Shown here: positions 772 to 16,934 of the stretch, piece by piece
How positions within the stretch are numbered: position 1 is the first letter of the stretch
Layout: every line of letters starts with the position of its first letter
Source: a virus
Reading direction: 5' to 3' (one strand)
Virus genome (UHGV): UHGV-0207004
Length of the DNA stretch: 16,978 nt
Translations under genes and position numbers: made by a program
The notes under the pieces: model-generated
What the model was told of the DNA's origin: nothing
Seen by the model: the letters and a program-made list of their open reading frames with translations, nothing else
The model's database searches: none

Positions 772-800
772 GGGGGCCATTACGGCCCCCGAATTATTTT
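772..800. terminator. bidirectional rho-independent terminator shared by the convergent genes
   Basis: GGGGGCC (772-778) / GGCCCCC (784-790) perfect 7-bp stem with 5-nt loop; A-run 766-771 gives a T-run for the minus-strand transcript, and ATTATTTT 793-800 follows on the plus strand. Confidence 0.6.
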
Positions 801-2317: not shown

Positions 2318-3821
2318 TGTCCGCTACCTTGTCCGGGTCTTCTTCGGTAGATTCTACCGCATCCGGGGACATTTGAGGCAATGGATTCTGATTTCGCAAT
2401 TCGTCTTCTACCTGCTCGACAGTTTGCGAGTCATCAATGACGCCCTGCGCCATCATCCACTTGATGAAGTCAGAAAGTCGGACCGTACCAGTCTGCACAC
2501 CCGCCATCATTGCAGTCATAAGCTGCGCATCAACCGAGATTTCAGTGTAGAACTTGTTCAGCGTCACGCGCTGGTCCGCAGTGTCGCCCGTGAATAGCTG
2601 GACGATTTGCAGCGCCCGGTTGAAAGCCTTCTCAACGTTACCGGCAATCAGTGACAGGATACTGTTGTCAGTCTGCGCATCGTAGGCCGCTTCGGTTGCC
2701 GTCTTAGGTGCGGTCCCCTTCTCAACCAGGGCCGCGCCAAGTTTAGCCATTTGCAATTCTCGGCGCTCACACAGTGCGACAGACAAGTTGCGCTCCTCGG
2801 CCTGGAGCAGTTTAGCGTCCATGTTCTGCCCCAGGATCACGCCCTTAGTTGCGCCGAGAGCAATGCCGCCCTTCAGGTTCTTGTCCGCCCATGATTGAGT
2901 CAGGCCCGTAGCAACGAGGGTCGGCTGGCCCACAATGTGCGCAATCTCGGCGACGTCCGCTTCGGCGTTGTAGTGCTTAATGTTGATGGACGCAATATCC
3001 GCCAGCGGCGCGGCGTCAGGCGATGCGTTGTTGTCTACCGCGCCACACCAGCAAAATGGTAGTTGCGTAAGCGCATTACCGGCAGCATCCACCAATGGCA
3101 CAAGGTCGGTGCGGGTGAAGCCGCGCGGCAAGTCCATTTGCACCTCGGACGTGTCCGCGTTGTAAAACCAGCGGCGGGCGTGTGCCTTGCCGTCAATCAT
3201 GCGAAGCTCGGTCCATATGGTTACTTCGTGGTTTGCGAAGTCGTCCGGGTCTTCGGTGCTGATTTCGTCCGTTTCCTTCAGCACGATTAGCGTGTCAACA
3301 CCGTGGGTCTGCCGCCAGTTGATGATCTGTTCTGCCGTATACAGGCGGATAAGCGGACGGTGCGCAGCCATCTCGGCGGCGGTCTGCGGCACTACGTTAC
3401 CCAGTTCATCAAAGTGGGCCTGGCGATCGTAGTCCACCATAAAGCCTGCGCGGCCCGATTGCAGAACTTCCGACATAGCGCCGCGCAGGAGTTGCGGCAA
3501 TGGCATACCGCTGCCGTCTACGTCGTCAATCAGGTCAGCCATCGCCCCGGAAAGGTCCAGACTTACCGGTTTTGCAAAGGCAACGCCCAACAGCGCGTTA
3601 AGTGTGCGGGCGGTGGCGTTCAGGAATACAGCGCGTTGCTTATACGCCTTATACCGCGCCCGTGATTTCGGGTCAGTATTGTCGCCGCTGGCGGGATGTG
3701 GCAGGTACAAAGGGCCGCACGCCTTCACGGCGCGCTCCCCTGCTACACAATCCCGGATCATTTTCCACTCTGGCGCGATGCGCGCATAGAGTGGGTGCTG
3801 GTTGTCAACGTTAACGGTCAT
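2301..3821 (-). CDS. portal protein
   Basis: 506 aa; ATG 3821-3819 with AAGGAA SD; lies between the terminase large subunit and the Mu F-like gene; acidic C-terminal tail; call is based on size and synteny, no diagnostic motif seen. Confidence 0.65.
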   Translation of the reverse strand: MTVNVDNQHPLYARIAPEWKMIRDCVAGERAVKACGPLYLPHPASGDNTDPKSRARYKAYKQRAVFLNATARTLNALLGVAFAKPVSLDLSGAMADLIDDVDGSGMPLPQLLRGAMSEVLQSGRAGFMVDYDRQAHFDELGNVVPQTAAEMAAHRPLIRLYTAEQIINWRQTHGVDTLIVLKETDEISTEDPDDFANHEVTIWTELRMIDGKAHARRWFYNADTSEVQMDLPRGFTRTDLVPLVDAAGNALTQLPFCWCGAVDNNASPDAAPLADIASINIKHYNAEADVAEIAHIVGQPTLVATGLTQSWADKNLKGGIALGATKGVILGQNMDAKLLQAEERNLSVALCERRELQMAKLGAALVEKGTAPKTATEAAYDAQTDNSILSLIAGNVEKAFNRALQIVQLFTGDTADQRVTLNKFYTEISVDAQLMTAMMAGVQTGTVRLSDFIKWMMAQGVIDDSQTVEQVEDELRNQNPLPQMSPDAVESTEEDPDKVADNGEND

Positions 3822-3831
3822 GTTCGTTTCC

Positions 3832-5217
3832 TTAGTAGAAGTCTACAGTTGGAACAACGGCGATTGGACGAATCACTGGGAACAGGTGCGCAATTGGATA
3901 GCCCGCGGCATCGTTCATGTGGTCCACCCCAGCGGTTTTATCCGGCTCGCCTTTCTTCAGGTCGTAAACCTGCTGTTCCAGGCATTTCGCTAGTGTAGGG
4001 CATTTATCCAGGTTGACAAAATACTGGCGCACGCCCTTAGCGTTGCACATCATCGTATTCATCGCGATCAATCTGTCTTTCACCGGTGGGTTGACGCTGT
4101 CGTATTCCACCTCGAAGCCCGCGTCTTCCAGTTGCGCGATATCCGACGACGATGCGTTTACGGTCTTACGAGACTTGCCACTGCTGTCCGGGTAAACGAC
4201 AACACGACCGGCAGCGCAATGATCGGGGTAGCGCTCCTCGATCGCCTCAATCATAGCCGGGGTATCAAACAAGTCCACAAATTCATCCACTGCGTGAATC
4301 TCGTCGCGGAACTCCTTATTCTCGGTAGTGCGCTGCCGTCTGACGTACACAACCGCCGCCATTTTCGTGACGTTAAAGTCCATTCCGATAATCAGCGTGT
4401 CATCCGGCTGCACTTCCTCGGTGCTGGCGTTCTCCTCACGGTTAAACATCTTGTAGACTGCGCCAGACGTGAGGTTTACAAACAAGCCGTTAAGATATGC
4501 GTCAATCAGGTTTGCAGGGTACTGGCTTCGCAGCGTGTCGATAAAGTCTGCCGGTAAGTGGTGGTTGTCGGTGGTCTTCGCCCGGATCAACCGTTTTTGG
4601 TTATCCTTCTCCACTTCGAAAATCTGATACATTGCCCGGAAGCCTTCCGGCGTGGACACGATGACAAACTGGCGCACCAGGCCCGCACGCAGACGACCGA
4701 GCAATTTGTGATACGCCGCCATTGCAACGTCTTGCTTCGTGGTGTCGAACTCATCGGCAACAATCCACGCGGCGTTAACACCGATAAGACGCGTGTAGTT
4801 CTCCATTGACTCGCAGATTACGCGGGTCCATTTGCCTTTCACCAGCACGCTATAGATCTTGTCCTGCTTGTTGAACTTCCACCGGAAGCCTGCCTCGTCG
4901 AAAGCCTTCTCCAGCTCCGGGTACATGATTTTCACCAGGAGTGGGATAGTCGGCTCGGTCACAATGCCGTCATGACCTGGGTTCAGTGTCAGAAGCTGGA
5001 TGACCTTACGCGCCGCGACCCATGACTTGCCGCCGCCGAAGCCGGAACACAGGCCGAGGATTTTGGTCTTTGTGTCGCGCAGTAGTTCTACCTGGTGCGG
5101 AAGGCAATCAGGTTGATACAGGCGGACGGCCTGGGCAACGCGCGTTGGGCGCGGTGGTCGGTTGCGCTTTGCAATCGCGCGTTCAAGTGCGCGGTTTTCT
5201 GCCGCATAGTTACGCAT
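3832..5217 (-). CDS. terminase large subunit
   Basis: 461 aa; ATG 5217-5215 overlapping the TerS stop (TAATG); Walker A-like GLCSGFGGGKS, Walker B-like WIVADEFD, C-terminal nuclease-like region (IIGMDFN...); position upstream of portal. Confidence 0.8.
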   Translation of the reverse strand: MRNYAAENRALERAIAKRNRPPRPTRVAQAVRLYQPDCLPHQVELLRDTKTKILGLCSGFGGGKSWVAARKVIQLLTLNPGHDGIVTEPTIPLLVKIMYPELEKAFDEAGFRWKFNKQDKIYSVLVKGKWTRVICESMENYTRLIGVNAAWIVADEFDTTKQDVAMAAYHKLLGRLRAGLVRQFVIVSTPEGFRAMYQIFEVEKDNQKRLIRAKTTDNHHLPADFIDTLRSQYPANLIDAYLNGLFVNLTSGAVYKMFNREENASTEEVQPDDTLIIGMDFNVTKMAAVVYVRRQRTTENKEFRDEIHAVDEFVDLFDTPAMIEAIEERYPDHCAAGRVVVYPDSSGKSRKTVNASSSDIAQLEDAGFEVEYDSVNPPVKDRLIAMNTMMCNAKGVRQYFVNLDKCPTLAKCLEQQVYDLKKGEPDKTAGVDHMNDAAGYPIAHLFPVIRPIAVVPTVDFY

Positions 5218-5768
5218 TACTCACCCTGGCCTTTGCCGATAGGTTCGACAACAACGTCGCCGTTATCATCTTCGTCATCATCCAGCGGAGCATCGTCGCG
5301 GACGCCGTGATTGGCTTTAAGCAGGAACGCAGCGAAGCCCGCCGCGATGGTGATGCCGCCCGCTTCCATCAGGAAAGTTTTCTGCAGCTCCATTGCGTCA
5401 GCCATCGCCTCGGCGAACTCCTCATGTGCGCGCGCCCAGCGGTACAGGCAGGCAATGCCTACACCAATATCCGCAGCAAAGCGACCGAGAGTCGGCATCT
5501 TATGGCGGGGGATGACTTGCGCAGCGCCCTTGTCGGAGTAGTTGATCTGCCAGGCTACGGCATCGGCAAAATAGCGGCGAAGCTGGTCGCAATACACAGT
5601 GCGGTAGTCGGTCGGGCGTCCACATTTGCCGCCTTTACGACGCTTGCCGTATTCGATCTCAGGTCCAAGATTGGTATGTTCGGTTTGCTCGCCTGGTTTA
5701 CGGCGCGGGGTGACTGCCACTCGACCGTCCAGTTTGGCGCGACGGCCCTTAACTCTGATTTCTGCCAT
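5217..5768 (-). CDS. terminase small subunit (183 aa)
   Basis: Track ORF (start 5867) trimmed to ATG 5768-5766, which has an AAGGG SD; basic N-terminus, HTH-like segment (TLGRFAADIGVGIACLYRWARAHEEF), acidic C-terminal tail; stop overlaps the TerL start. Confidence 0.55.
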   Translation of the reverse strand: MAEIRVKGRRAKLDGRVAVTPRRKPGEQTEHTNLGPEIEYGKRRKGGKCGRPTDYRTVYCDQLRRYFADAVAWQINYSDKGAAQVIPRHKMPTLGRFAADIGVGIACLYRWARAHEEFAEAMADAMELQKTFLMEAGGITIAAGFAAFLLKANHGVRDDAPLDDDEDDNGDVVVEPIGKGQGE

Positions 5769-5838
5769 GATATAAGCCCTTTTATGCATATGCGCCGACC
5801 ATCGGCAACATAGGAGACGGCCCTGCCATCTAAGGTGG

Positions 5839-5867
5839 ATTATAACAGGCACAAAAAAGCCCACCAA
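5839..5867 (-). promoter_or_regulatory. candidate sigma70-type promoter for the packaging operon (extended -10)
   Basis: Minus-strand reading: TTGGTG (5867-5862), 17-bp spacer, TGT-TATAAT (-10 at 5844-5839); overlaps the preceding terminator hairpin. Confidence 0.3.
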
Positions 5868-5885: not shown

Positions 5886-6098
5886 TTAAACGGCGCGACC
5901 GTAGTATCGGGTTAACATGCTTTCAACTTCGCTTATGGCACCCTCTGTGTAGCGTATTTGAGATAGTATCTCGATCCGCTCACTGATAGACATGCCTATT
6001 GCCGCTGCCGTTCGTTCGAATCGGCGCAAGCCTTCTAGTTGTTTGCGTAGCTCTTTCAGGCGGGTGGCCTGCGTGCTCATGAATACTTGTCTAATCAT
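5886..6098 (-). CDS. hypothetical 70-aa helical protein, translationally coupled to the phosphoesterase gene
   Basis: ATG 6098-6096 overlaps the upstream TGA (ATGA); predicted helical, charged; followed by a terminator. Confidence 0.5.
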   Translation of the reverse strand: MIRQVFMSTQATRLKELRKQLEGLRRFERTAAAIGMSISERIEILSQIRYTEGAISEVESMLTRYYGRAV

Positions 6099-7237
6099 CT
6101 CAACATCTCCGGGCTAATGGTTAGGCGCGCCACTTCGCCGTAGTTGGCGCTATAGGTGATGACGTTAGCACTGCGTCCGGACATCCAACCGCCGCGGCTT
6201 GCGTATGCGTCTTTCGCGGCGAGCGTCCGGTGCTGCTCAACAATCATGTTACGGGATTCTACAATCTTCTGGTGGTGCAAGTGACCAACATGCGCGTAAC
6301 TGTACTCGCTCTCGCCAAATGCTTTCCTGAACTTAGAAATCATTACCGACTCGATGGCGTCAAAGCGTGCTTTGTGACCGTGGTGGAAAAACAGCGTGGT
6401 CTTACCGTGCTGCACCATCTTGTATACGTCCGGTGACGTGTCAACATCGACGCGCGGCTCGTTCTCGTACAGGGTGTTGAACATCTCCGCCAGCCAAATC
6501 ATACCAGACTCGTCATGATTGCCCTGGACGATTAGCAGTTTTACTTTGTGGTGCTTTCGCAGCGCCAGGTCTACTACGTTGCGCACCATGCGAATCATGT
6601 AGCGGACCAACTTCTGGTATCGGGTATCCGCGTCCAGGATATGACCACTGGCTGGAGTGACTGCGTCAAGGCTGTCAAAGTGCGCCATATCGCCGAGGAT
6701 ATTGATGACGGCAGTTCCTGCGTCTGGTGCGCGGGCGAAGGCTTCGACAAACCAGCGGTAAAACAGATCTTCGGCGATTGCCATATCCCAGTCCTCGCCA
6801 GTCTCCTCGCCCCATGCCAGCATTCCCAAGTGGAAGTCTGACACTGTGTACAGGTTGAGTAGGTCAAGTGCCTGGATCGGGACGGGCGGGGCGCTAACTG
6901 GTGCTGCCGGTGTGATTTCGCTGTTCATACCCTCGACAACAGCGAGCATTGCTTCGAGTTGGCGCTCCTTGTCCTGCTCGGTGATAACCCATGACATGAC
7001 CTCTTCGCCATTGCCACGCACCAGGGCGGATACACGCTTGACGCCGAATCCATCGGCAACGCGCTTACGGATCACAGCATCGTTGCCGTGCCCAATGCCT
7101 TTCTTCGACAGCCTGGCTTTGCGCATATAGACATTTCGAAGAGCAATGCCATATTTCTTCGCAATCTCTTTCGATGTAGTGCCAGCTTGCAATTCAGCGA
7201 TCAATTGCTCGTCGGTGATTTTAGTTTGCGGATGCAT
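6095..7237 (-). CDS. N-terminal HTH domain fused to a calcineurin-like metallophosphoesterase (380 aa)
   Basis: ATG 7237-7235. N-terminal HTH-like segment (TSKEIAKKYGIALRNVYMRKARL). Metallophosphoesterase motif set seen in the translation: SDFHLG (D-x-H), ILGDMAHFD (GD), QGNHDE (GNHD/E), HHGH, GHLHH (GH-x-H). Confidence 0.75.
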   Translation of the reverse strand: MHPQTKITDEQLIAELQAGTTSKEIAKKYGIALRNVYMRKARLSKKGIGHGNDAVIRKRVADGFGVKRVSALVRGNGEEVMSWVITEQDKERQLEAMLAVVEGMNSEITPAAPVSAPPVPIQALDLLNLYTVSDFHLGMLAWGEETGEDWDMAIAEDLFYRWFVEAFARAPDAGTAVINILGDMAHFDSLDAVTPASGHILDADTRYQKLVRYMIRMVRNVVDLALRKHHKVKLLIVQGNHDESGMIWLAEMFNTLYENEPRVDVDTSPDVYKMVQHGKTTLFFHHGHKARFDAIESVMISKFRKAFGESEYSYAHVGHLHHQKIVESRNMIVEQHRTLAAKDAYASRGGWMSGRSANVITYSANYGEVARLTISPEMLR

Positions 7238-7367: not shown

Positions 7368-7390
7368 AGTGTGTTACTCCTTCCCGTTGA

Positions 7391-7428
7391 TTGGTTGCAG
7401 TATGGCCTCTATGTTGGTTGCAAGTCAA
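7391..7428 (-). promoter_or_regulatory. promoter/operator region with two TTGGTTGCA 9-mers
   Basis: Perfect TTGGTTGCA at 7391-7399 and 7414-7422; on the minus strand TTGACT (-35, complement of 7423-7428) and a weak CATACT -10 at 18-bp spacing; directly after a terminator and before the micro-ORF and phosphoesterase gene. Confidence 0.4.
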
Positions 7429-7430
7429 GC

Positions 7431-7457
7431 AATAAAAAGCCCGGATAATTCCGGGCT
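7431..7457 (-). terminator. rho-independent terminator ending the lysis unit
   Basis: AGCCCGGA (7438-7445) / TCCGGGCT (7450-7457) 8-bp stem, 4-nt loop; on the minus strand followed by TTTTATT (complement of 7431-7437); 7 nt after the stop at 7464. Confidence 0.6.
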
Positions 7458-7463
7458 TCATGT

Positions 7464-7650: not shown

Positions 7651-8142
7651 TTACACTGCGTTACGTCCGATTTTCTCGGCAACGTCCCACTGCTTACCAT
7701 CGAATAGTGCCTGCCGACCGATTGCACGGCGGACAAGCCCCTTGAGCACTACCCCACCCTGCTTGCGGAATTGCGGCAGTGTAGCACGTACCTTCGCCCA
7801 GTCACCCAGGCGGACCGCATCATCGAAGTCACCGGCAATGTTGTCCGGCGTGATCGGGCCAGGACCGGTATTGATAACCAGATCCACCAGCGCGTCGAAT
7901 TGCGCCTGATTAATGCTCGGGTGTGCGTACTTGTTCACACAACTTTCGGCATACTCCACATCTCGCTTGAGTAGCTCCAGCGCTTCCGCACGGGTAATGC
8001 TCCGCGGCGGATTTGTGCCGGTGTGTCCATAGCCCCAGGTGTACAGGCCGCGGGCCTGCTCTTTCTTAGTCGCGAAATACGGCACTGGGCTGAATTGCTC
8101 CCATGCTGCCGTGAATCTTAGACCGTTGTCACTGAATCGCAT
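7651..8142 (-). CDS. endolysin, GH24 (T4/P22-lysozyme-like) muramidase
   Basis: 163 aa; ATG 8142-8140 with GGGG SD; from memory of P22 gp19-type lysozymes the translation shares SxNG...GxGHTG...NQxQFDAL...FNxG-type blocks; position after holin-like genes. Confidence 0.8.
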   Translation of the reverse strand: MRFSDNGLRFTAAWEQFSPVPYFATKKEQARGLYTWGYGHTGTNPPRSITRAEALELLKRDVEYAESCVNKYAHPSINQAQFDALVDLVINTGPGPITPDNIAGDFDDAVRLGDWAKVRATLPQFRKQGGVVLKGLVRRAIGRQALFDGKQWDVAEKIGRNAV

Positions 8143-8374
8143 GTTTTACCCCATTCAAAACAGCATTACGCAGTGTGCGCAATGCAAACAGCCAGATTAA
8201 CGCGGTCCAGGTGGCGTCAGATACGTCTCCCGTTTGCAACAGACCGACAATACAGGTCATTGCCGTTAGCAGATACAACACCCGACCGAAGAAGCCATCC
8301 TGAACGGATGGCGCGTACACGTTAAACAGGGACGATGCCCCGATAATCACAAACAACAGGACGGTGATAATCAT
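8129..8374 (-). CDS. holin/antiholin-like small membrane protein (81 aa)
   Basis: Track ORF (171 aa) trimmed to ATG 8374-8372, which overlaps the upstream TGA (ATGA) and has a GGGGGG SD; three hydrophobic segments; 3-prime end overlaps the endolysin start. Confidence 0.5.
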   Translation of the reverse strand: MIITVLLFVIIGASSLFNVYAPSVQDGFFGRVLYLLTAMTCIVGLLQTGDVSDATWTALIWLFALRTLRNAVLNGVKHAIQ

Positions 8375-8661
8375 TTTGCGCCCCCCGGAAGGCGGAACGA
8401 CGCAATCGTCTCCCTGATCCGGGCGGCGATTGGCATCCAGAAGATGGCTGTTACGAAGCCCAATCCGGCGACAGTTCGCTCGCCAGATAGGCCAGCCCAC
8501 TCGGCAATCGCTGGCGCACCGAAAATGGCACACAAGAAGCCGACCACGATGTATAACACGAAGTTTAATGGCCCTTTCGTGGCCTCGCCATGAATGCGAG
8601 CGCCAACGAATCCGCCTGCAAGGCACGCTAGGGCGAATAACCATTCGTTCAGCTTTTCCAT
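8371..8661 (-). CDS. holin-like membrane protein (96 aa, three predicted TM segments)
   Basis: ATG 8661-8659; hydrophobic segments WLFALACLAGGFVGARI, FVLYIVVGFLCAIFGAPAIA, GLGFVTAIFWMPIAA; charged C-terminus; first gene of the holin-holin-endolysin block. Confidence 0.55.
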   Translation of the reverse strand: MEKLNEWLFALACLAGGFVGARIHGEATKGPLNFVLYIVVGFLCAIFGAPAIAEWAGLSGERTVAGLGFVTAIFWMPIAARIRETIASFRLPGGAK

Positions 8662-8713: not shown

Positions 8714-9001
8714 TTAATCGAAAATGGACCACTTACCGACGCCTTTCCATTCCCACCCTTCCGATCGGACGGCCTCGAACATACGGCCCCCGATCATATC
8801 CCGATACCACAGCCACCACATGCGCAGCTTGGTTGGGTGTTCGGTAATGCCGCGGCGCTTGTATATCTGGAACGTCATCCGGGTAATGCTGGCAGCTTCC
8901 ACGGCAGGCCATACCAGGAATACCCAAATAACTAACAACACTGCCGCGATAAGGCATAGTCCGCAGGCCAGCCCAAACCAATATATCATTTCGTGTAACA
9001 T
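8714..9001 (-). CDS. small membrane protein (95 aa), function unknown
   Basis: ATG 9001-8999 with AAGGGG SD at 8 nt; N-terminal TM helix, Trp-rich C-terminal half; caveat: two other frames are also open here, so coding status is uncertain. Confidence 0.4.
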   Translation of the reverse strand: MLHEMIYWFGLACGLCLIAAVLLVIWVFLVWPAVEAASITRMTFQIYKRRGITEHPTKLRMWWLWYRDMIGGRMFEAVRSEGWEWKGVGKWSIFD

Positions 9002-9122
9002 CGTATTGCCCCTTCTGGTTGTCCGATGTGGCGCGCCCAGGCACGCGCCACGAAGTAATTGCGGAACACTCGCCCGCCTATCTCAAAGCGGTTGTGCATG
9101 AGTATATCGCGGATGGTCGCAC

Positions 9123-9695
9123 TCATTTCAGAATCACCGAGCGCGGGTCGATGACGGTCATGTTGCCGTCCGGTTCGACACGGATGAATCCAACGCCATA
9201 CTCTTTAGCGTGGCGCTGTGCATTCGTCACGGCGTCAAAGCGATTGATGATTTCACGCGTTGCCTGGCGGATCGGCTCCATCACTTTGCTCGCGTCGTAG
9301 GCTGCATAGGCGGTCTGTGACTTGCGGAACTCAACGCGCTCATGTGGCTGGCGGATGCGCAGGCAGTATTTACGCCCCACTCGCTCGTAGTTGACCAGCC
9401 CGAAGTAAGCCACGCTCTTAACCATGTTGCCGGTACCGCCCTCCTTGCGGGTCTGCATACGAATGCAATAAAAACCAACATTCTCCACAATCCACAGCTG
9501 CCCGTCGCGAATATCCCGCAGCACATCGCCGCGCTCAATATCGTGGGTGAGTACGTCGAAGTTTTCCGACAGCTTGTCTTTCTTCGCCCACCACACCCGA
9601 CTACCTGCCGCGTTTTGCAAGCGGACGTAGGAATCCAGGGTCTGGATCGGCTTCAGGATGCATCCATCCCATTTACGGCGGAATAGTAATTTCAT
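9123..9695 (-). CDS. hypothetical protein (190 aa)
   Basis: ATG 9695-9693 overlapping the upstream TGA (ATGA); no motif recognised; last gene before the late leader and holin genes. Confidence 0.55.
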   Translation of the reverse strand: MKLLFRRKWDGCILKPIQTLDSYVRLQNAAGSRVWWAKKDKLSENFDVLTHDIERGDVLRDIRDGQLWIVENVGFYCIRMQTRKEGGTGNMVKSVAYFGLVNYERVGRKYCLRIRQPHERVEFRKSQTAYAAYDASKVMEPIRQATREIINRFDAVTNAQRHAKEYGVGFIRVEPDGNMTVIDPRSVILK

Positions 9696-9961
9696 TTGCT
9701 CAGTCTCCAGTGTTTGCCTGCCCGCTCAATGGCAGGCTTTCGGCGTAATGTAATACGGATCCCCATTGGTTGCAAGGAAGTCCGCACCCTGAAATCATGT
9801 TGTGCTGCGAACTGGTGCAGGTAGCGAGTCTGCGTAAGTGGCTTCGCATCATCGCGATAGCTCCAGTACACAGAATCGCCCTCAATCGCATTCTGCGCCC
9901 ATATTCGTATGCAATGCAGGGGAATGCCCCATGAAAGCTGTTTAGCTCGCCTCCGGCTCAT
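9692..9961 (-). CDS. hypothetical basic protein (89 aa)
   Basis: ATG 9961-9959 with AAGGGG SD; Arg/Trp-rich; translationally coupled to the downstream gene; contains an internal TTGGTTGCA at 9766-9774. Confidence 0.45.
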   Translation of the reverse strand: MSRRRAKQLSWGIPLHCIRIWAQNAIEGDSVYWSYRDDAKPLTQTRYLHQFAAQHDFRVRTSLQPMGIRITLRRKPAIERAGKHWRLSK

Positions 9962-9970
9962 TTTGGCCCC

Positions 9971-10276
9971 TTATTTCGCAAGCTGGGCGAATAGTTCGCG
10001 CTGGGCTTTAATCCGGGCGACGTTTGTCACTGCCGTCTCCCCGATCCCGAAGCGATAAGCCAGGCGCTCACGGGAGAATGCCATCGCATATTCGCAGATT
10101 GCCACGCGCAGCGGCTCCAGTTCGTCCAGGCTGGCAAACATATCGTCGAACGCGTTCATGATCGCCTGCTGGGTCAGGATGACTACCTCGCGCGCTTCGT
10201 CTGCGTTGCCGTTTAGTGCCTTCGCTTCGTCCAGCTTTGCCACGGCCAGGGTGTAATTCCAGATTAGTGCTTTCAT
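9971..10276 (-). CDS. hypothetical protein with C-terminal HTH-like segment (101 aa); candidate small regulator
   Basis: ATG 10276-10274 overlapping the upstream TGA; C-terminal RLAYRFGIGETAVTNVARIKAQRE resembles a helix-turn-helix. Confidence 0.5.
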   Translation of the reverse strand: MKALIWNYTLAVAKLDEAKALNGNADEAREVVILTQQAIMNAFDDMFASLDELEPLRVAICEYAMAFSRERLAYRFGIGETAVTNVARIKAQRELFAQLAK

Positions 10277-10470
10277 CGTTCAGTCCTCTTCGTGATGGTT
10301 ACGCTATCCAGGAATTGCAGCAAGGCCTCTTGCGCCTTTACACGCAATCCGGCGTAGTGGCGCGATTTCTTAATGTCGCCGACCATGTACGCTGCGCGTG
10401 CTTGCAAATCAGCTTTGTTCTCGGCCTCAATCAGTTCCAGCAGTTCGTCTACCAGGTCTTCGTGGTCCAT
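10273..10470 (-). CDS. hypothetical acidic helical protein (65 aa)
   Basis: ATG 10470-10468 with GAGGA SD at ~10 nt; first gene downstream of the promoter and repeat region. Confidence 0.5.
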   Translation of the reverse strand: MDHEDLVDELLELIEAENKADLQARAAYMVGDIKKSRHYAGLRVKAQEALLQFLDSVTITKRTER

Positions 10471-10485
10471 TGTTCAATCCTCATG

Positions 10486-10531
10486 TTGGTGTGCAACCAA
10501 TATATCAGTGTGCCCGGCCGGATGCAACCAA
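10486..10531 (-). promoter_or_regulatory. sigma70-like promoter overlapped by two TTGGTTGCA sites
   Basis: Minus-strand reading: -35 TTGCAT (complement of 10522-10527), 17-bp spacer, -10 TATATT (complement of 10499-10504); 9-mer copies at 10523-10531 and 10492-10500 (complement); the 21-mer TATATTGGTTGCACACCAACA is shared with 16579-16599. Confidence 0.45.
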
Positions 10532-10680
10532 TATTAATCACGCGCATGAAAAAGTTGATCGCTATCTGCTGCAACTGCAAACTGCATTTTTCACTCTCCA
10601 TTCTGCAACTCGCATTGGTTGCCGAGTTCATCGACGACCGCAATTTGCATCATGTTGCCGTGGATTATGCAATCCTGGAT

Positions 10681-11000
10681 TTTATGCAGTCTCAGACGAG
10701 GGGGGTGCCAGACCCCCCGTCTAGTCTGAAAGACTGGGGTGCTGTCCCGCTGTCCCGATCGGCTAAAACCCGCGGCAGCACTGGCGGGGACGGGGTGCTG
10801 TCCCGCTTTGTCCCGCCTCAATTTTGTCCCGCTTTTGTCCCGTTTGTTTTATGCATGAAAACTGAATAGGTATGCACTTTTCAGAGGGGTGCCAGATCGG
10901 GACGTCCCGCCTGTCCCGCTTTTAGTTTATGCAATAAAAGTAAATAGGTATGCAGTTTTTGAGGGGCGGGACAAAACGGGACGTCCCGCTTGTCCCGCTT
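10681..11000. repeat. ORF-free iteron array: three imperfect ~75-bp tandem modules carrying GTCCCGC heptamers (~10 direct, 3-4 inverted copies)
   Basis: GTCCCG(C) at 10744, 10752, 10800, 10810, 10826, 10837, 10904, 10913, 10983, 10992 (pairs 8-11 bp apart); inverted CGGGAC at 10898, 10967, 10977; modules start TTTATGCA at 10681, 10849, 10926 and share GAGGGG(TGCCAGA) and AATAGGTATGCA blocks; no ORF of 60 aa or more on either strand. Confidence 0.7.
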
Positions 11001-11002
11001 CA

Positions 11003-11679
11003 TTATGCGGGGTTTTGTTGCGCCATTTCATCGAGCGCGATTCGTTCCATTAGCTTGATATCTTTAAACGCGCGCTGCTCGTTTTCGATACCGTGCATCT
11101 TAAATAACCATTCCAGCACGCCATAGTCGATGCCGTATGCGCCACCGAATCCGGTGCGCCATTGCGTAGAGCAATCTGTGAAGACTGCGACTACCTTCGC
11201 GTTGTCGGGCCATAGCGCAACAGGCGGGCAAACGTCTTCAGGTGCCGCGCCCCATAAACTCGCGGCTAAGTCCTCTGATGGTGGCGGCGGACCGTAAAAT
11301 CGCCTCGCCGCCTCAATTAGTTTTTTTCACGCAGTCCCATCAGTTCGAGATAGTACGAGGTGTGGAACACGCCAAACGCGCGCGGATAGTTTACCACCAG
11401 GCGGCGAACGTTCTCCGCGTTAAATTCGTCCGGCAGGTTCCAGCCTTCAGCGACGTGCATGATGGCCTCAACCATAACGTTAAAGCCATCCGGGTCGTTG
11501 TCGTCATATTCTGATAGCTTGCGTTCCGTTTCCTGCATGGTCTGCGAAAATTCGTCAATCGGGCGGTGGCGGACGGTAAACGTCATCTTGCCTGGTTCGT
11601 TCTCACCAGGGCGCGGGATCTCAATCGGCAGCTTAAAGGTCGGCTTAGGGTCAAGTGTGAAGAGTGGTGCTTTAGCCAT
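11003..11679 (-). CDS. tail assembly chaperone GT fusion (predicted -1 programmed frameshift product)
   Basis: Slippery run GAAAAAAAC (complement of 11320-11328) at the last codons of G; the -1 frame has a stop 2 codons upstream of the slip site, then stays open for ~105 codons to TAA 11005-11003 with no plausible start codon or SD of its own. Confidence 0.45.
11317..11679 (-). CDS. tail assembly chaperone G (120 aa)
   Basis: Track ORF (TTG 11694) trimmed to ATG 11679-11677 with GGAG SD; small acidic protein directly downstream of the major tail protein gene and ending in a slippery A-run. Confidence 0.55.
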   Translation of the reverse strand: MAKAPLFTLDPKPTFKLPIEIPRPGENEPGKMTFTVRHRPIDEFSQTMQETERKLSEYDDNDPDGFNVMVEAIMHVAEGWNLPDEFNAENVRRLVVNYPRAFGVFHTSYYLELMGLREKN

Positions 11680-11692
11680 TGTAATATTCTCC

Positions 11693-11718
11693 AATAAAAA
11701 AGGGGCCGTGCTGGCCCC
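11693..11718 (-). terminator. rho-independent terminator after the major tail protein gene
   Basis: GGGGCC (11702-11707) / GGCCCC (11713-11718) stem, 5-nt loop; on the minus strand followed by TTTTTTATT (complement of 11693-11701). Confidence 0.6.
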
Positions 11719-11748
11719 ATATTATCACTCGCTATTTAAGCGACCAAA

Positions 11749-12474
11749 TCAGGCGAGTGCCTCGACCAGGTCCTTACGGTAGATGACCATATCAGACTGC
11801 ATGGTCAGAGTGGATTGTACCGTTTCCACGTTGTTTACTTCAGCGGACGGAATCTTCTGGAAAGATACCTTAGCCGGGTAAATACGAATTTCACCTTTGC
11901 CGCTTGCTGCCGCTGGGTTAGTGAACTTAATCACAGTGGTTTTCTGTGTGTCGTCCAGGTCTTCCAGGATTGGGCGGATCGGGTCTTCTTCGTCGTGGGT
12001 GAAGGTGTAAGTCTGGACCAACGGGTTTTTCGTGGTGTTCAGACTGATCGCGGTGTTCACCTGCAACGGCTGGAAGGTAGTCGTCTGCTGGTCACCACCA
12101 GAAACAGCAACGTTAGTGATAAACGGGAAGTCGATAAAGTTAGCCACCTTAACCACTTCGCCAGGTGTACCCGCTGCAAAAGCCCCCGCCGGATATTTGG
12201 TCACATCCGAGGTGTCGAAGCGCGCGAGCGTGACGTCGTTGGTAGCCACTTTACCCACGATGAACGCGCGGTTCTGCGCGCGGACCCACGGAGATTTAGT
12301 GAACATTACCACGTCGCCAACTTTCAGACCGTGAGACGCCGCGCAGGTGATTACGCAACCAGTGGTAAGGTTGGAGATCGACGCGGTGGCGTTGGAAGCT
12401 GCCGTAACAGCGATGCCGCTGCCCAGTACGGACCCAATCTGGACGCTGGACCCGTTAGGAAGTTGATAACCCAT
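11749..12474 (-). CDS. major tail (tube) protein
   Basis: 241 aa; ATG 12474-12472 with AGGAG SD; Gly/Ser/Thr/Val-rich beta-type composition; followed by a terminator and a chaperone gene with a frameshift, the canonical siphovirus arrangement. Confidence 0.55.
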   Translation of the reverse strand: MGYQLPNGSSVQIGSVLGSGIAVTAASNATASISNLTTGCVITCAASHGLKVGDVVMFTKSPWVRAQNRAFIVGKVATNDVTLARFDTSDVTKYPAGAFAAGTPGEVVKVANFIDFPFITNVAVSGGDQQTTTFQPLQVNTAISLNTTKNPLVQTYTFTHDEEDPIRPILEDLDDTQKTTVIKFTNPAAASGKGEIRIYPAKVSFQKIPSAEVNNVETVQSTLTMQSDMVIYRKDLVEALA

Positions 12475-12534
12475 AATGAAGCTCCTGTTTAGATATACGG
12501 ATTAATGATACAGCACGCGCAGAATTGCGCCAAA

Positions 12535-12957
12535 TCAGGCGCAACAGCTATACATGATTGATACCACGATGCGGGCGCGGTCAACATCCTCGACCACAGA
12601 ACTGGTATATGGCGCGTCCTGAAGCTGGAAAGCCGCGCCATCGATCTTGACGCCATGCCATTTGTCAGACGTCGCGATGGCGTCCGCCAGTTCGCTCGCG
12701 TACTGTGTGCCCGTGCCCGCAGGGAACACAACGGCAACCTGGTAAACGCCTGCATAGATCCGGCCTTTCTGCTGAAGGCCAGCAAACTGGGTCGGGGCCG
12801 GTAGCAGGTACGGCTCCAGGTAGACGCCATTACCGTTTGCGTGGTCGCCCTTCACGTTCTCCCAGTTAACCTGGATCGGACGCTGGTTAGTGCTCAGGCT
12901 AACCGCCAATTCTTCTACTACGCTGTTAAGCGCCTTGCGGATTAGAGTATTGCTCAT
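12535..12957 (-). CDS. head-tail joining / tail terminator-like protein (140 aa)
   Basis: ATG 12957-12955 overlapping the upstream stop; call is from position between head-tail connector genes and the major tail protein only. Confidence 0.4.
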   Translation of the reverse strand: MSNTLIRKALNSVVEELAVSLSTNQRPIQVNWENVKGDHANGNGVYLEPYLLPAPTQFAGLQQKGRIYAGVYQVAVVFPAGTGTQYASELADAIATSDKWHGVKIDGAAFQLQDAPYTSSVVEDVDRARIVVSIMYSCCA

Positions 12958-13550
12958 TATTTCACCTTAGAATTGATTTCTGCCGCCACAACGCGAACAA
13001 TCCCCGCTGGCGCTTGTTTACTCCAGCCATACTCCAGTCGCTGCGCATACGGCACATTATTAGTAAACCAGATCGATCCGTATTCGCCAGAATCGTAATG
13101 CGCCAGCACGTCACGCCCTGCGGCTAATGTTGCCGTTCCAGCCTTGTCCACTCTGTCGATAGCGCCGACAGCCGGACGGTCGAAAGTCACCTGCCAGTTT
13201 CCCCGGAAGCGTCCGCCGGTGTAATTCTTCGCGGCCCAGCCACGCTGGCGAAATGTGACGTTGCCGTCTTTAGTCTTAAACGAGACGAGCACACTTGCGT
13301 GTTTCTTCTGCCCGCGCTTCAGTTTGCCGCCATTCTTGCGGCGCTGTGCGGCGTTCACCTTGTTCGCGTGCTGGCGGGCCATCGCGAACGCCCTGTTAAT
13401 CTTCCACCGGCGGGGGTCGCCCACCGGGGAAATCTCAATCAGGCGTCCGAGTATTTGCATACCGGTCGCCCGCACCGCCTTGTCGTTATTCTCCTTCGTC
13501 TTTTCCACCCAGGTGGCGATGGTGGCGGCGAACGAGTAGACCTCAGCCAC
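12957..13550 (-). CDS. head-tail connector family protein (197 aa), possibly HK97 gp10-like
   Basis: GTG 13550-13548 with AAGGGG SD at ~5 nt; synteny between capsid and tail genes; family assignment is from recollection, not a search. Confidence 0.4.
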   Translation of the reverse strand: MAEVYSFAATIATWVEKTKENNDKAVRATGMQILGRLIEISPVGDPRRWKINRAFAMARQHANKVNAAQRRKNGGKLKRGQKKHASVLVSFKTKDGNVTFRQRGWAAKNYTGGRFRGNWQVTFDRPAVGAIDRVDKAGTATLAAGRDVLAHYDSGEYGSIWFTNNVPYAQRLEYGWSKQAPAGIVRVVAAEINSKVK

Positions 13551-13551
13551 A

Positions 13552-13905
13552 TTAGCCCCTTAGCTGTAATTGAAACAGCATGGTAGTTCCCGCCGGTTGC
13601 AGTGGATTTGGATTGATAACACGGTAGTCCGTGCTATTCAGGTTGACCAGATCGCCTACCTGCACTTGCTCCGATGCCTGGCATAAGAACTTAACGTCAC
13701 CGGCAATGATACGAGTCCCGTCGATCTCGCTGGGCTTGTACTCCTCGCGAAGACCGATGACATCAAACGACGTTGGCGGGATAACCACTTCTTCGCCGCC
13801 TACGCGGTCAACAGACCCCGGACGCGTCACCTTAACGGTCATGCCGTATTTTTTAATCAGCGGATTTACTTTCCGCTTCAAGCCTGCGTAGTTAAAGCCC
13901 GCCAT
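13552..13905 (-). CDS. head closure / head-tail adaptor-like protein (117 aa)
   Basis: Track start GTG 13914 abuts the SD; ATG 13905-13903 has GGAGGG at ~9 nt and is preferred; synteny. Confidence 0.45.
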   Translation of the reverse strand: MAGFNYAGLKRKVNPLIKKYGMTVKVTRPGSVDRVGGEEVVIPPTSFDVIGLREEYKPSEIDGTRIIAGDVKFLCQASEQVQVGDLVNLNSTDYRVINPNPLQPAGTTMLFQLQLRG

Positions 13906-13906
13906 T

Positions 13907-14002
13907 TTATTCACCCTCCGGCGCTGGTTCTGGTTCTGGTTCTGGTTCTGGTGGCTGTTTGGTATTTGCGGCGATAACAGCCGCGAGTAATGCAGGATTC
14001 AT
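13907..14002 (-). CDS. 31-aa mini-protein with (Pro-Glu)4 repeat (MNPALLAAVIAANTKQPPEPEPEPEPAPEGE)
   Basis: ATG 14002-14000 one nt after the upstream TAA, AGGGG SD at ~5 nt; stop TAA 13909-13907 one nt before the next ATG; fills an otherwise unexplained 97-nt gap; resembles the C-terminus of the 56-aa protein at 7464-7634. Confidence 0.3.
   Translation of the reverse strand: MNPALLAAVIAANTKQPPEPEPEPEPAPEGE
13925..13953. repeat. hexanucleotide tandem repeat (TGGTTC) x4 plus a partial copy
   Basis: TGGTTC at 13925, 13931, 13937, 13943, then TGGTG; encodes the PEPEPEPE stretch on the minus strand. Confidence 0.85.
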
Positions 14003-14003
14003 A

Positions 14004-14504
14004 TTAGCCCCTGTACACGTCAAAGTTACCGGCGGCGTTGCCGTCTGTGTTCACCCAGTAGCCCAGCAGGCCATCCCACCACGGGAAAGACACACCACTA
14101 CCAATCGACGCAGCGTCATACTCCATCGTGATCGGGCCTACCGTTTCGCGGATAGTCTCCTTTCCATCGCCGATCGGAGAAATATCAACATCGTCAGCCA
14201 CCAGCATTGCCAGCCGGTAAACGGCTTGTTCAACGGCAACGGGGATTGATGCGAAGTCTACAATCTGCCCAGCAGGTACTACTGCCAAATCTTCGGTAAG
14301 CGTGTTCAGTACCGGCTTACCGTCTGATGGGTAGTTGATGCGGGGCCATGCGTCAATTCCGGTCGGGTCCGCCGGTTCGCCGATCCAGGCGATGCCGTTG
14401 AGGAAATCATTAACTATGGTAAGGTGTCGCGTTGCATCGCCCTGCGTAATTTCAACGCCTCGCGCCGCGGCATAAACAACGAAGGTTTGCGGGTCGCCAT
14501 ACAT
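14004..14504 (-). CDS. head-tail connector / head completion candidate (166 aa)
   Basis: ATG 14504-14502 with AGGAG SD at 8 nt; first gene after the capsid terminator; synteny only. Confidence 0.45.
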   Translation of the reverse strand: MYGDPQTFVVYAAARGVEITQGDATRHLTIVNDFLNGIAWIGEPADPTGIDAWPRINYPSDGKPVLNTLTEDLAVVPAGQIVDFASIPVAVEQAVYRLAMLVADDVDISPIGDGKETIRETVGPITMEYDAASIGSGVSFPWWDGLLGYWVNTDGNAAGNFDVYRG

Positions 14505-14517
14505 TTTATTTGCTCCT

Positions 14518-14543
14518 ATAAAAAAGGCGGGCTTATGCCCGCC
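14518..14543 (-). terminator. rho-independent terminator after the major capsid gene
   Basis: GGCGGGC (14526-14532) / GCCCGCC (14537-14543) 7-bp stem, 4-nt loop; on the minus strand followed by TTTTTT (complement of 14520-14525). Confidence 0.6.
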
Positions 14544-14562
14544 CCTTTGGGATTTGCGCCGA

Positions 14563-15663
14563 TCAGGACGCTGTGGTCGCAGTCAGCGTAACCAGTACGC
14601 CAGCCGTTTCCTTGATGTTACGGGTCGGCACTTCCTGCGCGGCCTGGGTCTTACGACGGCCTTTAGTATCGCCATCACCCACCGCGCCAACATCCTGAAC
14701 GGTTGCCGGTGCGTTGTCTACTTGGCCCTGGTCCAGTTCCCAGTTTGCGGAAGTGGTAATATCGCTCAGTTTGAACGAGCGTACACCTTCGATCGGGGTG
14801 CGAGCGGACGCCTTCAGACGGTAGCCTTTAACAGCCACGTTGAAGTCGAACTCACCCTGCCACCAGCGTTCGATGTTCTCGTTACCGCCTTTTTCCTGCG
14901 CCAGCATATCAAGGCCGTTGGTGGTAACTGCAACCGCGCCAGGGACCAGACCCAGCATTTTACCCGCGCCCATAGCATCGGCAGCGGCATCGGAGATAAT
15001 GAAACGACGACCCAGGCCGTCACCCATTACCTGCAGATCGCCGATCGCAAATACCTGCTCGGCAGACGGGAGCGCCTGGTACGCAATGAAGTTTGCCCAG
15101 GTAACGCCGTCCATAAACCAGGATTTAATCAAAGACGCCTGATCGCCGAACTTAGAAGCCGCCAGCGGGAAGTCTGCCAGGGTCGGGAAGGTACGACCGC
15201 CAACACCGTCAACACGCGCCGGTTGGGTGTATGCTGCCGCTGGGTTGCTCTCGATCGCCGCTTTACTTGCGCCGATACCGGCCTTCAGGTAATGCAGCAT
15301 AATCGCTTGAGTAGCCTGTGCCGCAATCTCAGCCGCAACGCTGTTAACGTTGGTTTCGATCTTAGCCATCATAGCCTTAGTGATTGCCACCGGACCCACT
15401 TTCGCGGAGAGGTTGACCGAGTTGGTCAGCATACGCGCCAGCACTTTAGCGGTCGCCGGAGTACCGACAGGGGCATATGCGTTACGGTCAGTAACGAGGT
15501 TGGCGATCAAGCCTACGGACATTTTTTCTACAACGTCCTTCAGCACTTCACCTGTACCGAGAACAACAGCGCCGTTCGCGGCAGCGTTGAACACGTTCAG
15601 GTTGTCGGGGATCATTTGCGTAACCGCGGTAACGAGTTTACGCTGGAACACTGTTAAAGACAT
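14563..15663 (-). CDS. major capsid protein
   Basis: 366 aa; ATG 15663-15661 with AAGGA SD; immediately downstream of the scaffold gene and followed by a strong terminator; Ala/Gly/Val-rich; call from size, position and expression signals. Confidence 0.7.
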   Translation of the reverse strand: MSLTVFQRKLVTAVTQMIPDNLNVFNAAANGAVVLGTGEVLKDVVEKMSVGLIANLVTDRNAYAPVGTPATAKVLARMLTNSVNLSAKVGPVAITKAMMAKIETNVNSVAAEIAAQATQAIMLHYLKAGIGASKAAIESNPAAAYTQPARVDGVGGRTFPTLADFPLAASKFGDQASLIKSWFMDGVTWANFIAYQALPSAEQVFAIGDLQVMGDGLGRRFIISDAAADAMGAGKMLGLVPGAVAVTTNGLDMLAQEKGGNENIERWWQGEFDFNVAVKGYRLKASARTPIEGVRSFKLSDITTSANWELDQGQVDNAPATVQDVGAVGDGDTKGRRKTQAAQEVPTRNIKETAGVLVTLTATTAS

Positions 15664-15730
15664 ATCGAAATCCTTTGAGTTGTGAGCATTCGCCCAGTGA
15701 CGTTAATGTTACCTTAGATTTACGCGCTCG

Positions 15731-15756
15731 CAAAATCGCCCGCTTTCGCGGGCGAT
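15731..15756 (-). terminator. attenuator-like hairpin between scaffold and capsid genes
   Basis: ATCGCCCGC (15735-15743) / GCGGGCGAT (15748-15756) perfect 9-bp stem, 4-nt loop; on the minus strand followed by only TTTTG (complement of 15731-15734). Confidence 0.35.
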
Positions 15757-15760
15757 CTGC

Positions 15761-16465
15761 TTACTCGTCGTCGCCCATTTTAGCGATGATTTCACCGGCC
15801 TGTTTTGTCAGGTCTGTAATACCAAAGCTATGGCCCATCGAGATTTTCGGCTTCGCATCTTCAATAACCTGTGTCGGTTTGCTCGGAGCGCCACCTGCTG
15901 GCGTGCCTGCTAGTACGGATGCAAAATCGGCGTTACTACGGAACTCTTTTTCAAGCTCTTCCATAGTAAGGGCGGACGGTTTGCCATCCTTCAACACCCG
16001 CAATTTCAAGCTGCCGTCTTCGCCGTCTTCCAGCGCGAGTCGGTCCATTACGTGGCGTTGCATGATGCCCGCATTCTTACCGAACAGCTTCGACGCCAGG
16101 TCTTTGGCAGCGCTGCCGATGGTTAGATCGTGGATCTGCTTGCGGTAGGCTTCGATTTTACCCGATGTGTCTGCTTCGTGTTTTGCAAACTTATCCTTCC
16201 AGGATTTATCGATCGCTTCGAGGTCGCCATTTTTGCGCGCGGCGGCTTCCTCTTTCTCTTTCGCAAGGCGCTCGGCTTCGGCGCGGCGTTCGGCTTCTGC
16301 TTTCTTCTCGCTCACCAGCTTTGCGTTGTTGTCTTTCAGACCCTTGATTTCCGCCTGCACTTCGTCAGCGGTCATAAATGTTGACTTATACCCGTCGCCA
16401 TCGGCAACAAAAAGCGCCTTCATACCTTCTGGCAACGCGTCGTATTCTGCTTTGGTAAGTTTCAT
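15761..16465 (-). CDS. scaffolding protein (234 aa)
   Basis: Track ORF (start 16699) trimmed to ATG 16465-16463 with AGGGGGA SD; Lys/Glu/Ala-rich coiled-coil-like central region (KKAEAERRAEAERLAKEKEEAAARK); directly upstream of the capsid gene. Confidence 0.6.
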   Translation of the reverse strand: MKLTKAEYDALPEGMKALFVADGDGYKSTFMTADEVQAEIKGLKDNNAKLVSEKKAEAERRAEAERLAKEKEEAAARKNGDLEAIDKSWKDKFAKHEADTSGKIEAYRKQIHDLTIGSAAKDLASKLFGKNAGIMQRHVMDRLALEDGEDGSLKLRVLKDGKPSALTMEELEKEFRSNADFASVLAGTPAGGAPSKPTQVIEDAKPKISMGHSFGITDLTKQAGEIIAKMGDDE

Positions 16466-16555: not shown

Positions 16556-16599
16556 TTGCAATCCTGGTGTTGGTTGCATATATTGGTTGCACACCAACA
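16556..16599 (+). promoter_or_regulatory. plus-strand sigma70-like promoter overlapped by two TTGGTTGCA sites, in a divergent intergenic region
   Basis: -35 TTGCAA (16556-16561), 17-bp spacer, -10 TATATT (16579-16584); 9-mer copies at 16570-16578 and 16583-16591; the 21-mer 16579-16599 is the reverse complement of 10484-10504; a GAGCGGG/CCCGCTC hairpin at 16489-16505 lies in the scaffold gene leader. Confidence 0.45.
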
Positions 16600-16619: not shown

Positions 16620-16934
16620 ATGACTAACATGACCGTAGCAACTCCAGTAGACGTAGCAATGACCCGTTTCAATAAAGCTACCGTAGCTAAAACCTTCACC
16701 TTTCATGCTATGCGTAACGCCGAAGCGCTGAATCTGTGCCAGAGCATGAATGCTACTGAAGCAGCGAAGGCCGCAATCAATTCCGCATCCTTCGATAACC
16801 CGGCTTGCGGTCTGGTTCCGGCATCTTTCATCAAATCCCTGGTAGAAGCCTTTAACGATTTCATGTGCGTCGATGCCGTTGAAGCCGTATGCGCTCGCTT
16901 AACTTCCACCGGTGGCAACATCAAGTTTAACTAA
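16620..16934 (+). CDS. hypothetical protein (104 aa), divergent from the structural operon
   Basis: ATG 16620 with AAGGA SD at 7 nt (in-frame ATG 16605 lacks an SD); ends TAA 16932-16934; followed by a GGGGC-GAAA-GCCCC hairpin near the window edge. Confidence 0.5.
   Translation: MTNMTVATPVDVAMTRFNKATVAKTFTFHAMRNAEALNLCQSMNATEAAKAAINSASFDNPACGLVPASFIKSLVEAFNDFMCVDAVEAVCARLTSTGGNIKFN

Follow-up and report, generated by a model that had tools for sequence, protein, structure and literature searches.

A recurrent 9-bp box at sigma70-type promoters of Dhillonviruses, best read as a protein-binding operator

A 9-bp box is over-represented in the window

The asymmetric 9-mer TTGGTTGCA is over-represented in a 16,978-nucleotide stretch of Dhillonvirus DNA (UHGV-0207004; hereafter, the window), where it lies in four predicted sigma70-type promoters, and it recurs at predicted promoters throughout the genus, with an orientation and a register that differ between sites. 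It is best read as an operator, that is, as a site at which a protein would bind. Seven perfect copies are present (7391, 7414, 9766, 16570, and 16583 on the plus strand; 10492 and 10523 on the minus strand), all of which had been listed in a preliminary description of this DNA that was made from the sequence alone. The same description held that less than one copy would be expected by chance, in agreement with 200 dinucleotide-preserving shuffles (mean 0.20, maximum 2), none of which reached seven. As a class, matches with one mismatch are not enriched in the window (8 observed vs 4.6 expected), therefore the signal is carried by the perfect copies. The single 1-mismatch copy singled out earlier (TTGGTTGCC at 10615) is indeed present and could be an auxiliary site. 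The 21-bp block TATATTGGTTGCACACCAACA, said to be common to the 10.5-kb and 16.6-kb promoters in opposite orientation, is exact and occurs only twice (10484–10504, minus strand; 16579–16599, plus strand; 0 expected); it contains a -10 element, one copy of the box, and an inverted partial copy (ACCAA).

The window is probably a segment of a virulent coliphage genome

The window belongs to a Dhillonvirus, an HK578-like virulent E. coli siphophage, and shows 83–89% identity to JLBYU27, KarlBarth, SSL-2009a, HK578, and about 155 other records, with no match to E. coli genomes. Genes were named from the annotation of relatives and from family searches (Table 1); no Rfam families or tRNAs were found. 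Dhillonviruses are virulent and have no lysogeny module in their annotation. DNA modification has not been described for them in the literature examined, despite the Nmad5 gene in the 16.6-kb unit. A GC-rich hairpin (GGGGGCC-ATTAC-GGCCCCC, 772–790) with T-runs on both sides lies between the convergent Nmad5 and spanin genes and looks like a bidirectional terminator.

Dhillonvirus genomes measure 43–46 kb (PMC8594841), and about 27 kb of the complete genomes, from the tape-measure gene to the helicase-primase gene, is missing from the window. Two non-coding fields of GTCCCGC-rich repeats, oriented alike and with about 195 bp in common at 82–84% identity, are found in complete relatives, one before the tape-measure gene and the other after the helicase-primase gene. 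The junction region of the window (10682–10878) aligns to both of these fields in KarlBarth. Contigs of 16–17 kb recur in many independent Logan assemblies, including one of 16,977 bp that stops exactly at the repeat edge. Because the junction aligns to both fields and Logan contigs end at the repeat edge, the window, like the GenBank record of JLBYU27 (OK272475; 16.5 kb, labelled 'complete genome'), is most likely an inter-repeat segment that was circularised by the assembler and not a real mini-phage; a genuine deletion derivative is the less likely alternative. Given that only the inter-repeat segment is present, the window misses the best candidate binder and roughly half of the regulon. 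The repeat field of the window itself comprises nine GTCCCGC words, often 10–11 bp apart, in a tandem array of two or three units that are each about 78 bp long and contain a TATGCA-N16-TATGCA pair and the palindrome CGGGACGTCCCG; origin iterons or the sites of another regulator are possibilities for this structure.

Table 1 Genes, predicted promoters, and copies of the 9-bp box in the window
Feature	Position	Strand	Details
Nmad5 (nucleotide-modification-associated domain 5) protein	1-765	+	Family match E=1e-53
Spanins, head morphogenesis protein, portal, TerL, TerS	780-5867	-	
70-aa protein and metallophosphoesterase	5886-7237		Metallophosphoesterase at 6095-7237 (-)
Promoter-like site opposite P7.4	7387-7415	+	TTGATT-17-TATGTT; overlaps P7.4 (42 bp in common, 7387-7428)
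P7.4 box copy	7391-7399	+	Inverted vs transcription; over last base of -10 CATACT (7404-7399) and start site
P7.4	7428-7399	-	TTGACT-18-CATACT
P7.4 box copy	7414-7422	+	Inverted vs transcription; immediately after -35 TTGACT (7428-7423)
Terminator hairpin of lysis cassette	7436-7459	-	Adjoins P7.4 upstream
Endolysin and holins	7651-8644 and adjacent		
Small proteins	8714-10470		95, 46, 190, 89, 101, and 65 aa
Internal promoter	9775-9747	-	TTGCAA-17-TACATT; inside 89-aa gene (9692-9961); -10 TACATT at 9752-9747
Box copy of internal promoter	9766-9774	+	Inverted (TTGCAACCAA); provides -35 TTGCAA (9775-9770)
P10.5 second box copy	10492-10500	-	Over end of -10 TATATT (10504-10499) and start site
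P10.5	10527-10499	-	TTGCAT-17-TATATT
P10.5 upstream box copy	10523-10531	-	Provides -35 TTGCAT (10527-10522); kept in 19 relatives
1-mismatch copy TTGGTTGCC	10615-10623	+	Inverted vs P10.5, about 95 bp upstream
Non-coding repeat field	10700-11010		
Tail chaperone through major tail, head completion, major capsid, scaffold	11100-16465	-	
P16.6	16556-16584	+	TTGCAA-17-TATATT
P16.6 -35 element	16556-16561	+	TTGCAA, palindromic hexamer
Candidate divergent promoter	-35 at 16556-16561	-	TTGCAA-17-TTTTAT; faces scaffold/capsid operon
P16.6 box copy 1	16570-16578	+	In spacer, abuts -10; starts at -9 from -10 start
P16.6 -10 element	16579-16584	+	TATATT; promoter tool scan
P16.6 box copy 2	16583-16591	+	Last two -10 bases and predicted start site; +4 from -10 start
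104-aa gene	16620-16934	+	

Four predicted promoters of the window carry the box

Promoters were called by consensus, P16.6 and P7.4 from a promoter tool scan and P10.5 and the internal promoter from a weight-matrix scan. Three pairs of boxes had been described as overlapping sigma70-like elements in front of transcription units, and promoters were located at all three places (P16.6, P7.4, and P10.5). With 17–18 bp spacers, the four promoters of the window all score in the top 0.05% of positions, and the ATGs at 16620, 10470, and 7367 are found 25–40 bp downstream of their promoters. The fourth promoter was found at the copy at 9766, which had been set aside as intragenic. It does lie inside the 89-aa gene, but it is not a stray copy, as it is part of a strong promoter-like site (score 10.4). 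All six synonymous sites within this copy and its -10 element are invariant, compared to 55% gene-wide (10 distinct relatives; P about 0.03). Based on this score and on the synonymous-site invariance, it is better stated that the window holds four box-bearing promoters, one of them internal to a gene.

P16.6 serves the 104-aa gene and, if the contig is circular, the Nmad5 gene. The 160-bp divergent region in which it lies is nearly invariant among relatives, and its -35 hexamer, shared with the candidate divergent promoter, could act as a competition switch. P10.5 lies upstream of the 65-aa gene (10273–10470) and the 101-aa gene, and downstream of P7.4 are an ORF for a 26-aa peptide (7367–7287) and the phosphoesterase gene. 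The promoter-like site on the strand opposite P7.4 is probably secondary, because it is degenerate in KarlBarth; it would yield a short antisense transcript that runs into the terminator of the lysis cassette. An RNA-level 5' hairpin (UUGGU...ACCAA) was rejected as an explanation of the box, since the predicted start lies inside the motif and the left arm would not be transcribed.

The box is conserved at predicted promoters throughout the genus

Complete genomes of relatives contain 10 (KarlBarth), 12 (SSL-2009a), and 11 (HK578) perfect copies, with about 0.3 expected in each. Their placement with respect to genes is not random: the intergenic fraction of these genomes is 5.5–6.5%, and it holds 9 of 10 copies in KarlBarth (P=4e-11), 7 of 12 in SSL-2009a (P=2e-6), and 8 of 11 in HK578 (P=5e-8). 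Several of the 'coding' copies fall in doubtful tiny ORFs. Copies with one mismatch are also intergenic above expectation in the complete relatives (6 of 13–16).

The copies form about nine site classes, the same across 20 relatives, and the flanks of different classes are unrelated. Beyond the four classes of the window, these comprise the promoters of cor, the dam operon, ssb/polymerase, and the leftward exonuclease operon, together with an inverted pair in SSL-2009a and HK578. Every site class coincides with a sigma70 prediction in the top 0.05%. For example, 10 of the 45 best sigma70 predictions in KarlBarth have the motif between -45 and +25 of the -10 element, compared to about one expected. 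The HK578 record annotates three consensus-matched promoters, one of which overlaps a box. Near-exclusive intergenic location, synteny in 20 relatives, and coincidence with the best promoter predictions support the suggestion of a family of co-regulated promoters.

Footprints across 10–19 relatives, which are shallow because these genomes have diverged by about 10–25% only, show that the motif copies and the promoter hexamers are invariant. Drifting stretches include the 17 bp between the two P10.5 copies and the sequence before the first P16.6 copy. At the 10615 place, GCAACCAA is kept in 15 of 15 IMG/VR relatives. Two or three copies of TTGGTTGCC with common flanks occur in relatives after the helicase-primase gene, beside the repeat field. 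The KarlBarth region at 38690–38810, which is absent from the window, follows the helicase-primase gene and adjoins the second repeat field. There, the unit AAATTTTGCGCGCATTGGTTGCC is present twice, together with a third TTGGTTGCC and the perfect 20-bp palindrome GATATGGGAATTCCCATATC, and the region may be an origin or have a regulatory role.

Phages from Escherichia, Shigella, Salmonella, and Sodalis hosts all carry the motif in unaltered form. Coliphage T1, which is related and shares the same host, has only two copies, both intragenic and at chance level. A scan of IMG/VR for pairs (TTGGTTGCA-N4-30-TTGGTTGCA) returned at least 120 matches in unrelated contigs, which is about the number expected by chance for a collection of this size and thus uninformative on spread beyond Dhillonviruses. 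Literature searches on the 9-mer, on Dhillonvirus/HK578 promoters, and on transcriptomes returned only primers and unrelated papers, with no published account of the motif, of Dhillonvirus promoters, or of their transcription programme.

The box as a proposed operator

Relative to the start of the -10 element, forward copies occupy registers -27 (where the box provides TTGCAT as the -35 element), -19, -10/-9, and +4, and inverted copies occupy -22 (where it provides TTGCAA), -18, -11/-10, and +5/+6; the two orientations are about equally frequent. Predicted operator sites thus overlap core promoter elements in all site classes (registers -27 to +6). Copies outside core promoters are the one about 95 bp upstream of P10.5 and the TTGGTTGCC cluster after the helicase-primase gene of relatives. 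Strong promoters without the box exist before TerS (TTGGTG-17-TATAAT, from window position 5867), before the major tail gene (TTGGCG-17-TATCAT, from window position 12533), and, in KarlBarth, before the gp51 and helicase-primase genes (TTGACA-17-TAGTTT), therefore the box is not needed for promoter function. It is because the 9-mer is found in either orientation, at or beside polymerase contacts, and is dispensable for promoter strength that we favour the operator reading.

We propose that a fuller box, (A)TTGGTTGC(A/C), is the operator of one protein, most likely phage-encoded, that controls about nine sigma70-type promoters by repression, and consider this moderately probable. Host RNA polymerase should use the box-bearing promoters unaided, given that each has its own good -35 and -10 elements with a 17–18 bp spacer. 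A protein bound at the box would then block polymerase. Since the hexamers are good and the boxes lie on them, between them, or over the start site, repression is most likely the mode of regulation, as judged from promoter architecture. Early and middle units would thereby be turned down or shut off in the manner of Cro, namely those for the small early proteins, cor, dam, ssb/polymerase, and the Nmad5 and exonuclease operons. The late-gene promoters (terminase and major tail) have no box. The proposed regulon mixes replication, exclusion, and modification genes, which counts against this proposal. Over-representation of the box, its coincidence with predicted promoters, its conservation, and its varied register and orientation are observed; that a protein binds, which protein this might be, and whether it represses are what we infer from them.

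Alternative explanations of the box

Because an asymmetric 9-mer follows the logic of DnaA boxes, we considered a dual-function initiator/activator that would mark an origin next to the helicase-primase gene and tune promoters, possibly switching on the late divergent scaffold/capsid promoter while blocking P16.6. The two orientations and variable spacing of the box are consistent with such a protein, as are the two or three TTGGTTGCC copies beside the repeat field after the helicase-primase gene in relatives, and the only HTH gene with a significant Pfam match lies directly upstream of that gene. In addition, the P16.6 pair (16570–16591) lies about 40–60 bp upstream of the -10 element of the divergent promoter, which uses the same palindromic TTGCAA. 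However, at most of the copies a bound protein would stand in the way of polymerase. The divergent TTGCAA-17-TTTTAT is without the key A at -11, and the -35 element of another possible divergent promoter (TTGCGA-16-TAATAT) is not the common one. We therefore regard this explanation as unlikely. A more specific version, in which one gp51-type HTH protein uses the 9-mer in a DnaA-like manner at about 15–20 sites, marking the origin region, shutting early and middle promoters, and freeing the TTGCAA at 16.6 kb for the divergent capsid promoter, is quite doubtful.

The preliminary description had left the choice between operator sites and a promoter or initial-transcribed element. The latter would be an extended -35 element or a -10-flanking or initial-transcribed sequence, read by host polymerase that is possibly modified by a phage factor. 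At P10.5 and the internal promoter, TTGGTTGCAT or TTGCAACCAA gives a -35 element (TTGCAT/TTGCAA) exactly 17 bp from the -10 element, and the motif likewise provides the -35 element in the gp34, cor, and SSL-25185 promoters of relatives. Since the motif doubles as the -35 hexamer of four or five promoters, contacts made by RNA polymerase account by themselves for some of its conservation, and the 21-bp block also includes a -10 element and the start site. Operator sites fit better, given that the 9-mer occurs inverted as well as forward and in at least six registers, including mid-spacer and start-site positions where no polymerase contact is known in both orientations. An intrinsic element is also hard to reconcile with the copy some 95 bp upstream of a promoter, with the cluster outside promoters, and with equally strong promoters that lack the motif, and, by sequence reading, no usable second promoter arises from the downstream copies. 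A purely promoter-intrinsic role is thus quite unlikely.

Sites of a host transcription factor, co-opted by the phage, would agree with the window encoding no protein with a significant DNA-binding domain and with the constancy of the motif in phages from four host genera. The half-site ATTGGT resembles those of the GntR family (PdhR/LldR), which we counted in favour of a host factor. Nevertheless, the dyad TTGGT-N3-ACCAA expected for PdhR/GntR has 0 matches in the window with up to one mismatch, and the invariant TGCA part of the box is outside the PdhR/GntR consensus. The lack of enrichment in T1 argues weakly against a widely exploited host factor, and no E. coli factor is known to us that matches the 9-mer. 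We consider a host factor very unlikely. The last alternative, a functionless word left by promoter duplication (which the 21-bp block common to two promoters could reflect) or clustered by chance, is extremely improbable and effectively refuted by the shuffles, the intergenic bias, site classes with unrelated flanks, and footprints in which the copies are invariant across relatives about 15% diverged and neighbouring bases drift.

Candidate binders

Family and structure matches revealed no significant DNA-binding domain or fold in any protein of the window, which weighs against the operator proposal. Two of these proteins had been named as possible binders, and neither is supported. The 101-aa protein (9971–10276, minus strand) was taken for a small HTH protein, but it has no match at the Pfam gathering score, and its model (pLDDT 96) is a bundle of four long helices that matches only Rop-like and other helical bundles, with no HTH fold match and no informative structural neighbour. 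By eye, residues 69–88 fit classical HTH spacing; the Pfam score is far below threshold, and a Cro match is likewise sub-threshold (E=0.17). The protein is acidic (pI 5.1) and its family is restricted to the genus (115 clusters), with 45 C-terminal residues that do not vary and an N-terminal and middle part that does, indels included. The metallophosphoesterase has a weak N-terminal GerE-like HTH match (E=0.0012) and was rejected, because KarlBarth lacks the gene and keeps the motif at all site classes. The 89-aa protein is strongly basic (pI 11.3, net charge +12) and 74–92% conserved across the genus; its model is of moderate quality (pLDDT 78) with an alpha/beta fold, and comparison with the PDB gave nothing significant (best match TusA/IF3-C-like, E=0.04).

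The best candidate for the binder is a gp51-type HTH_23 protein, as judged from family matches and from a C-terminal part as invariant across the genus as the motif. KarlBarth gp51 (36088–36417) exceeds the Pfam thresholds for HTH_23 (30.9 bits), Sigma70_r4_2 (27.7 bits), and HTH_28, and this type is the only stand-alone protein of the genus to pass Pfam HTH thresholds. It is not encoded in the window; its gene lies directly upstream of the helicase-primase gene and has a boxless promoter. Among 17 diverse members of the family, the last 60 residues are invariant and the first 45 hypervariable. The N-terminus is wholly replaced in several lineages, and the HK578 variant, with such a replacement, still keeps the recognition helix. 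One constant and one hypervariable end suggest diversifying selection on a partner-binding end. A profile search of the PDB with this family returned only a designed repeat protein. The 101-aa, 89-aa, and gp51 families are absent outside the genus, and within it neither the motif nor the parts of these proteins that might contact DNA vary, so that motif and candidates offer no co-variation.

Significance of the box

Dhillonviruses are common, easily isolated virulent coliphages that are included in the BASEL collection and used in work on defence systems and phage therapy. A 9–10 bp box that marks essentially all of their non-structural promoters provides a map of transcription units and a testable regulon, and it could be put to use in engineering (regulated or insulated promoters and control of timing). 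If the DnaA-like reading of gp51 were true, it would amount to a one-protein early-to-late switch in a virulent siphophage. Overall, the circuit looks like a real, fairly ordinary kind of phage control that is useful for annotation and overturns no principle.

Comparison with known systems

DnaA boxes are asymmetric 9-mers that occur in both orientations, clustered in a non-coding region and also in promoters, and are bound by an AAA+ initiator. The Dhillonvirus word is unrelated to TTATCCACA, and its candidate binder is a small HTH protein and not an AAA+ initiator. By inspection, neither the DnaA-box nor the sigma54 consensus fits the 9-mer. The MotA boxes of phage T4 are asymmetric 9-bp elements of middle promoters that replace a missing -35 element at a fixed position (about -30) and in a fixed orientation. 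Like them, the Dhillonvirus boxes are asymmetric and 9 bp long, are the mark of one promoter class of a virulent coliphage, and take the place of the -35 region or overlap it; unlike them, they are found in at least six registers and both orientations, and good -35 hexamers are present.

Phage repressors provide further parallels. The OR and OL operators of lambda Cro and CI are 17-bp dyads at two loci over the -35 and -10 elements of early sigma70 promoters, where Cro lowers early transcription in lytic growth. The predicted Dhillonvirus operators likewise lie over strong promoters, with turn-down as the proposed mode, but they are asymmetric 9-mers at about nine loci with a spacing of 13–31 bp. 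The C1 operators of P1 are asymmetric 17-bp sites, scattered singly or in pairs, that overlap the promoters of many units and maintain lysogeny. Scattered, asymmetric, promoter-overlapping sites are common to both systems, although the binder is known for P1 and only a candidate is available here.

Cluster A mycobacteriophages (L5, Bxb1) encode a repressor with 20–30 asymmetric 13-bp operator or 'stoperator' sites (PMC6550527; PMC1934351). Stoperators are found mostly outside promoters, in one direction with respect to transcription, and block elongation (PMC6550527). Both systems use a short asymmetric word that is repeated many times, is mostly intergenic and in some cases in promoters, and is conserved together with an HTH protein, here a candidate. 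The Dhillonvirus word differs in its length (9–10 bp), in being located nearly always in core promoters and in both orientations, and in belonging to a virulent phage; its placement and orientation are not those of stoperators. By analogy, the nearest precedents for the Dhillonvirus box appear to be the phage repressors with many asymmetric sites, namely those of cluster A mycobacteriophages and C1 of P1.
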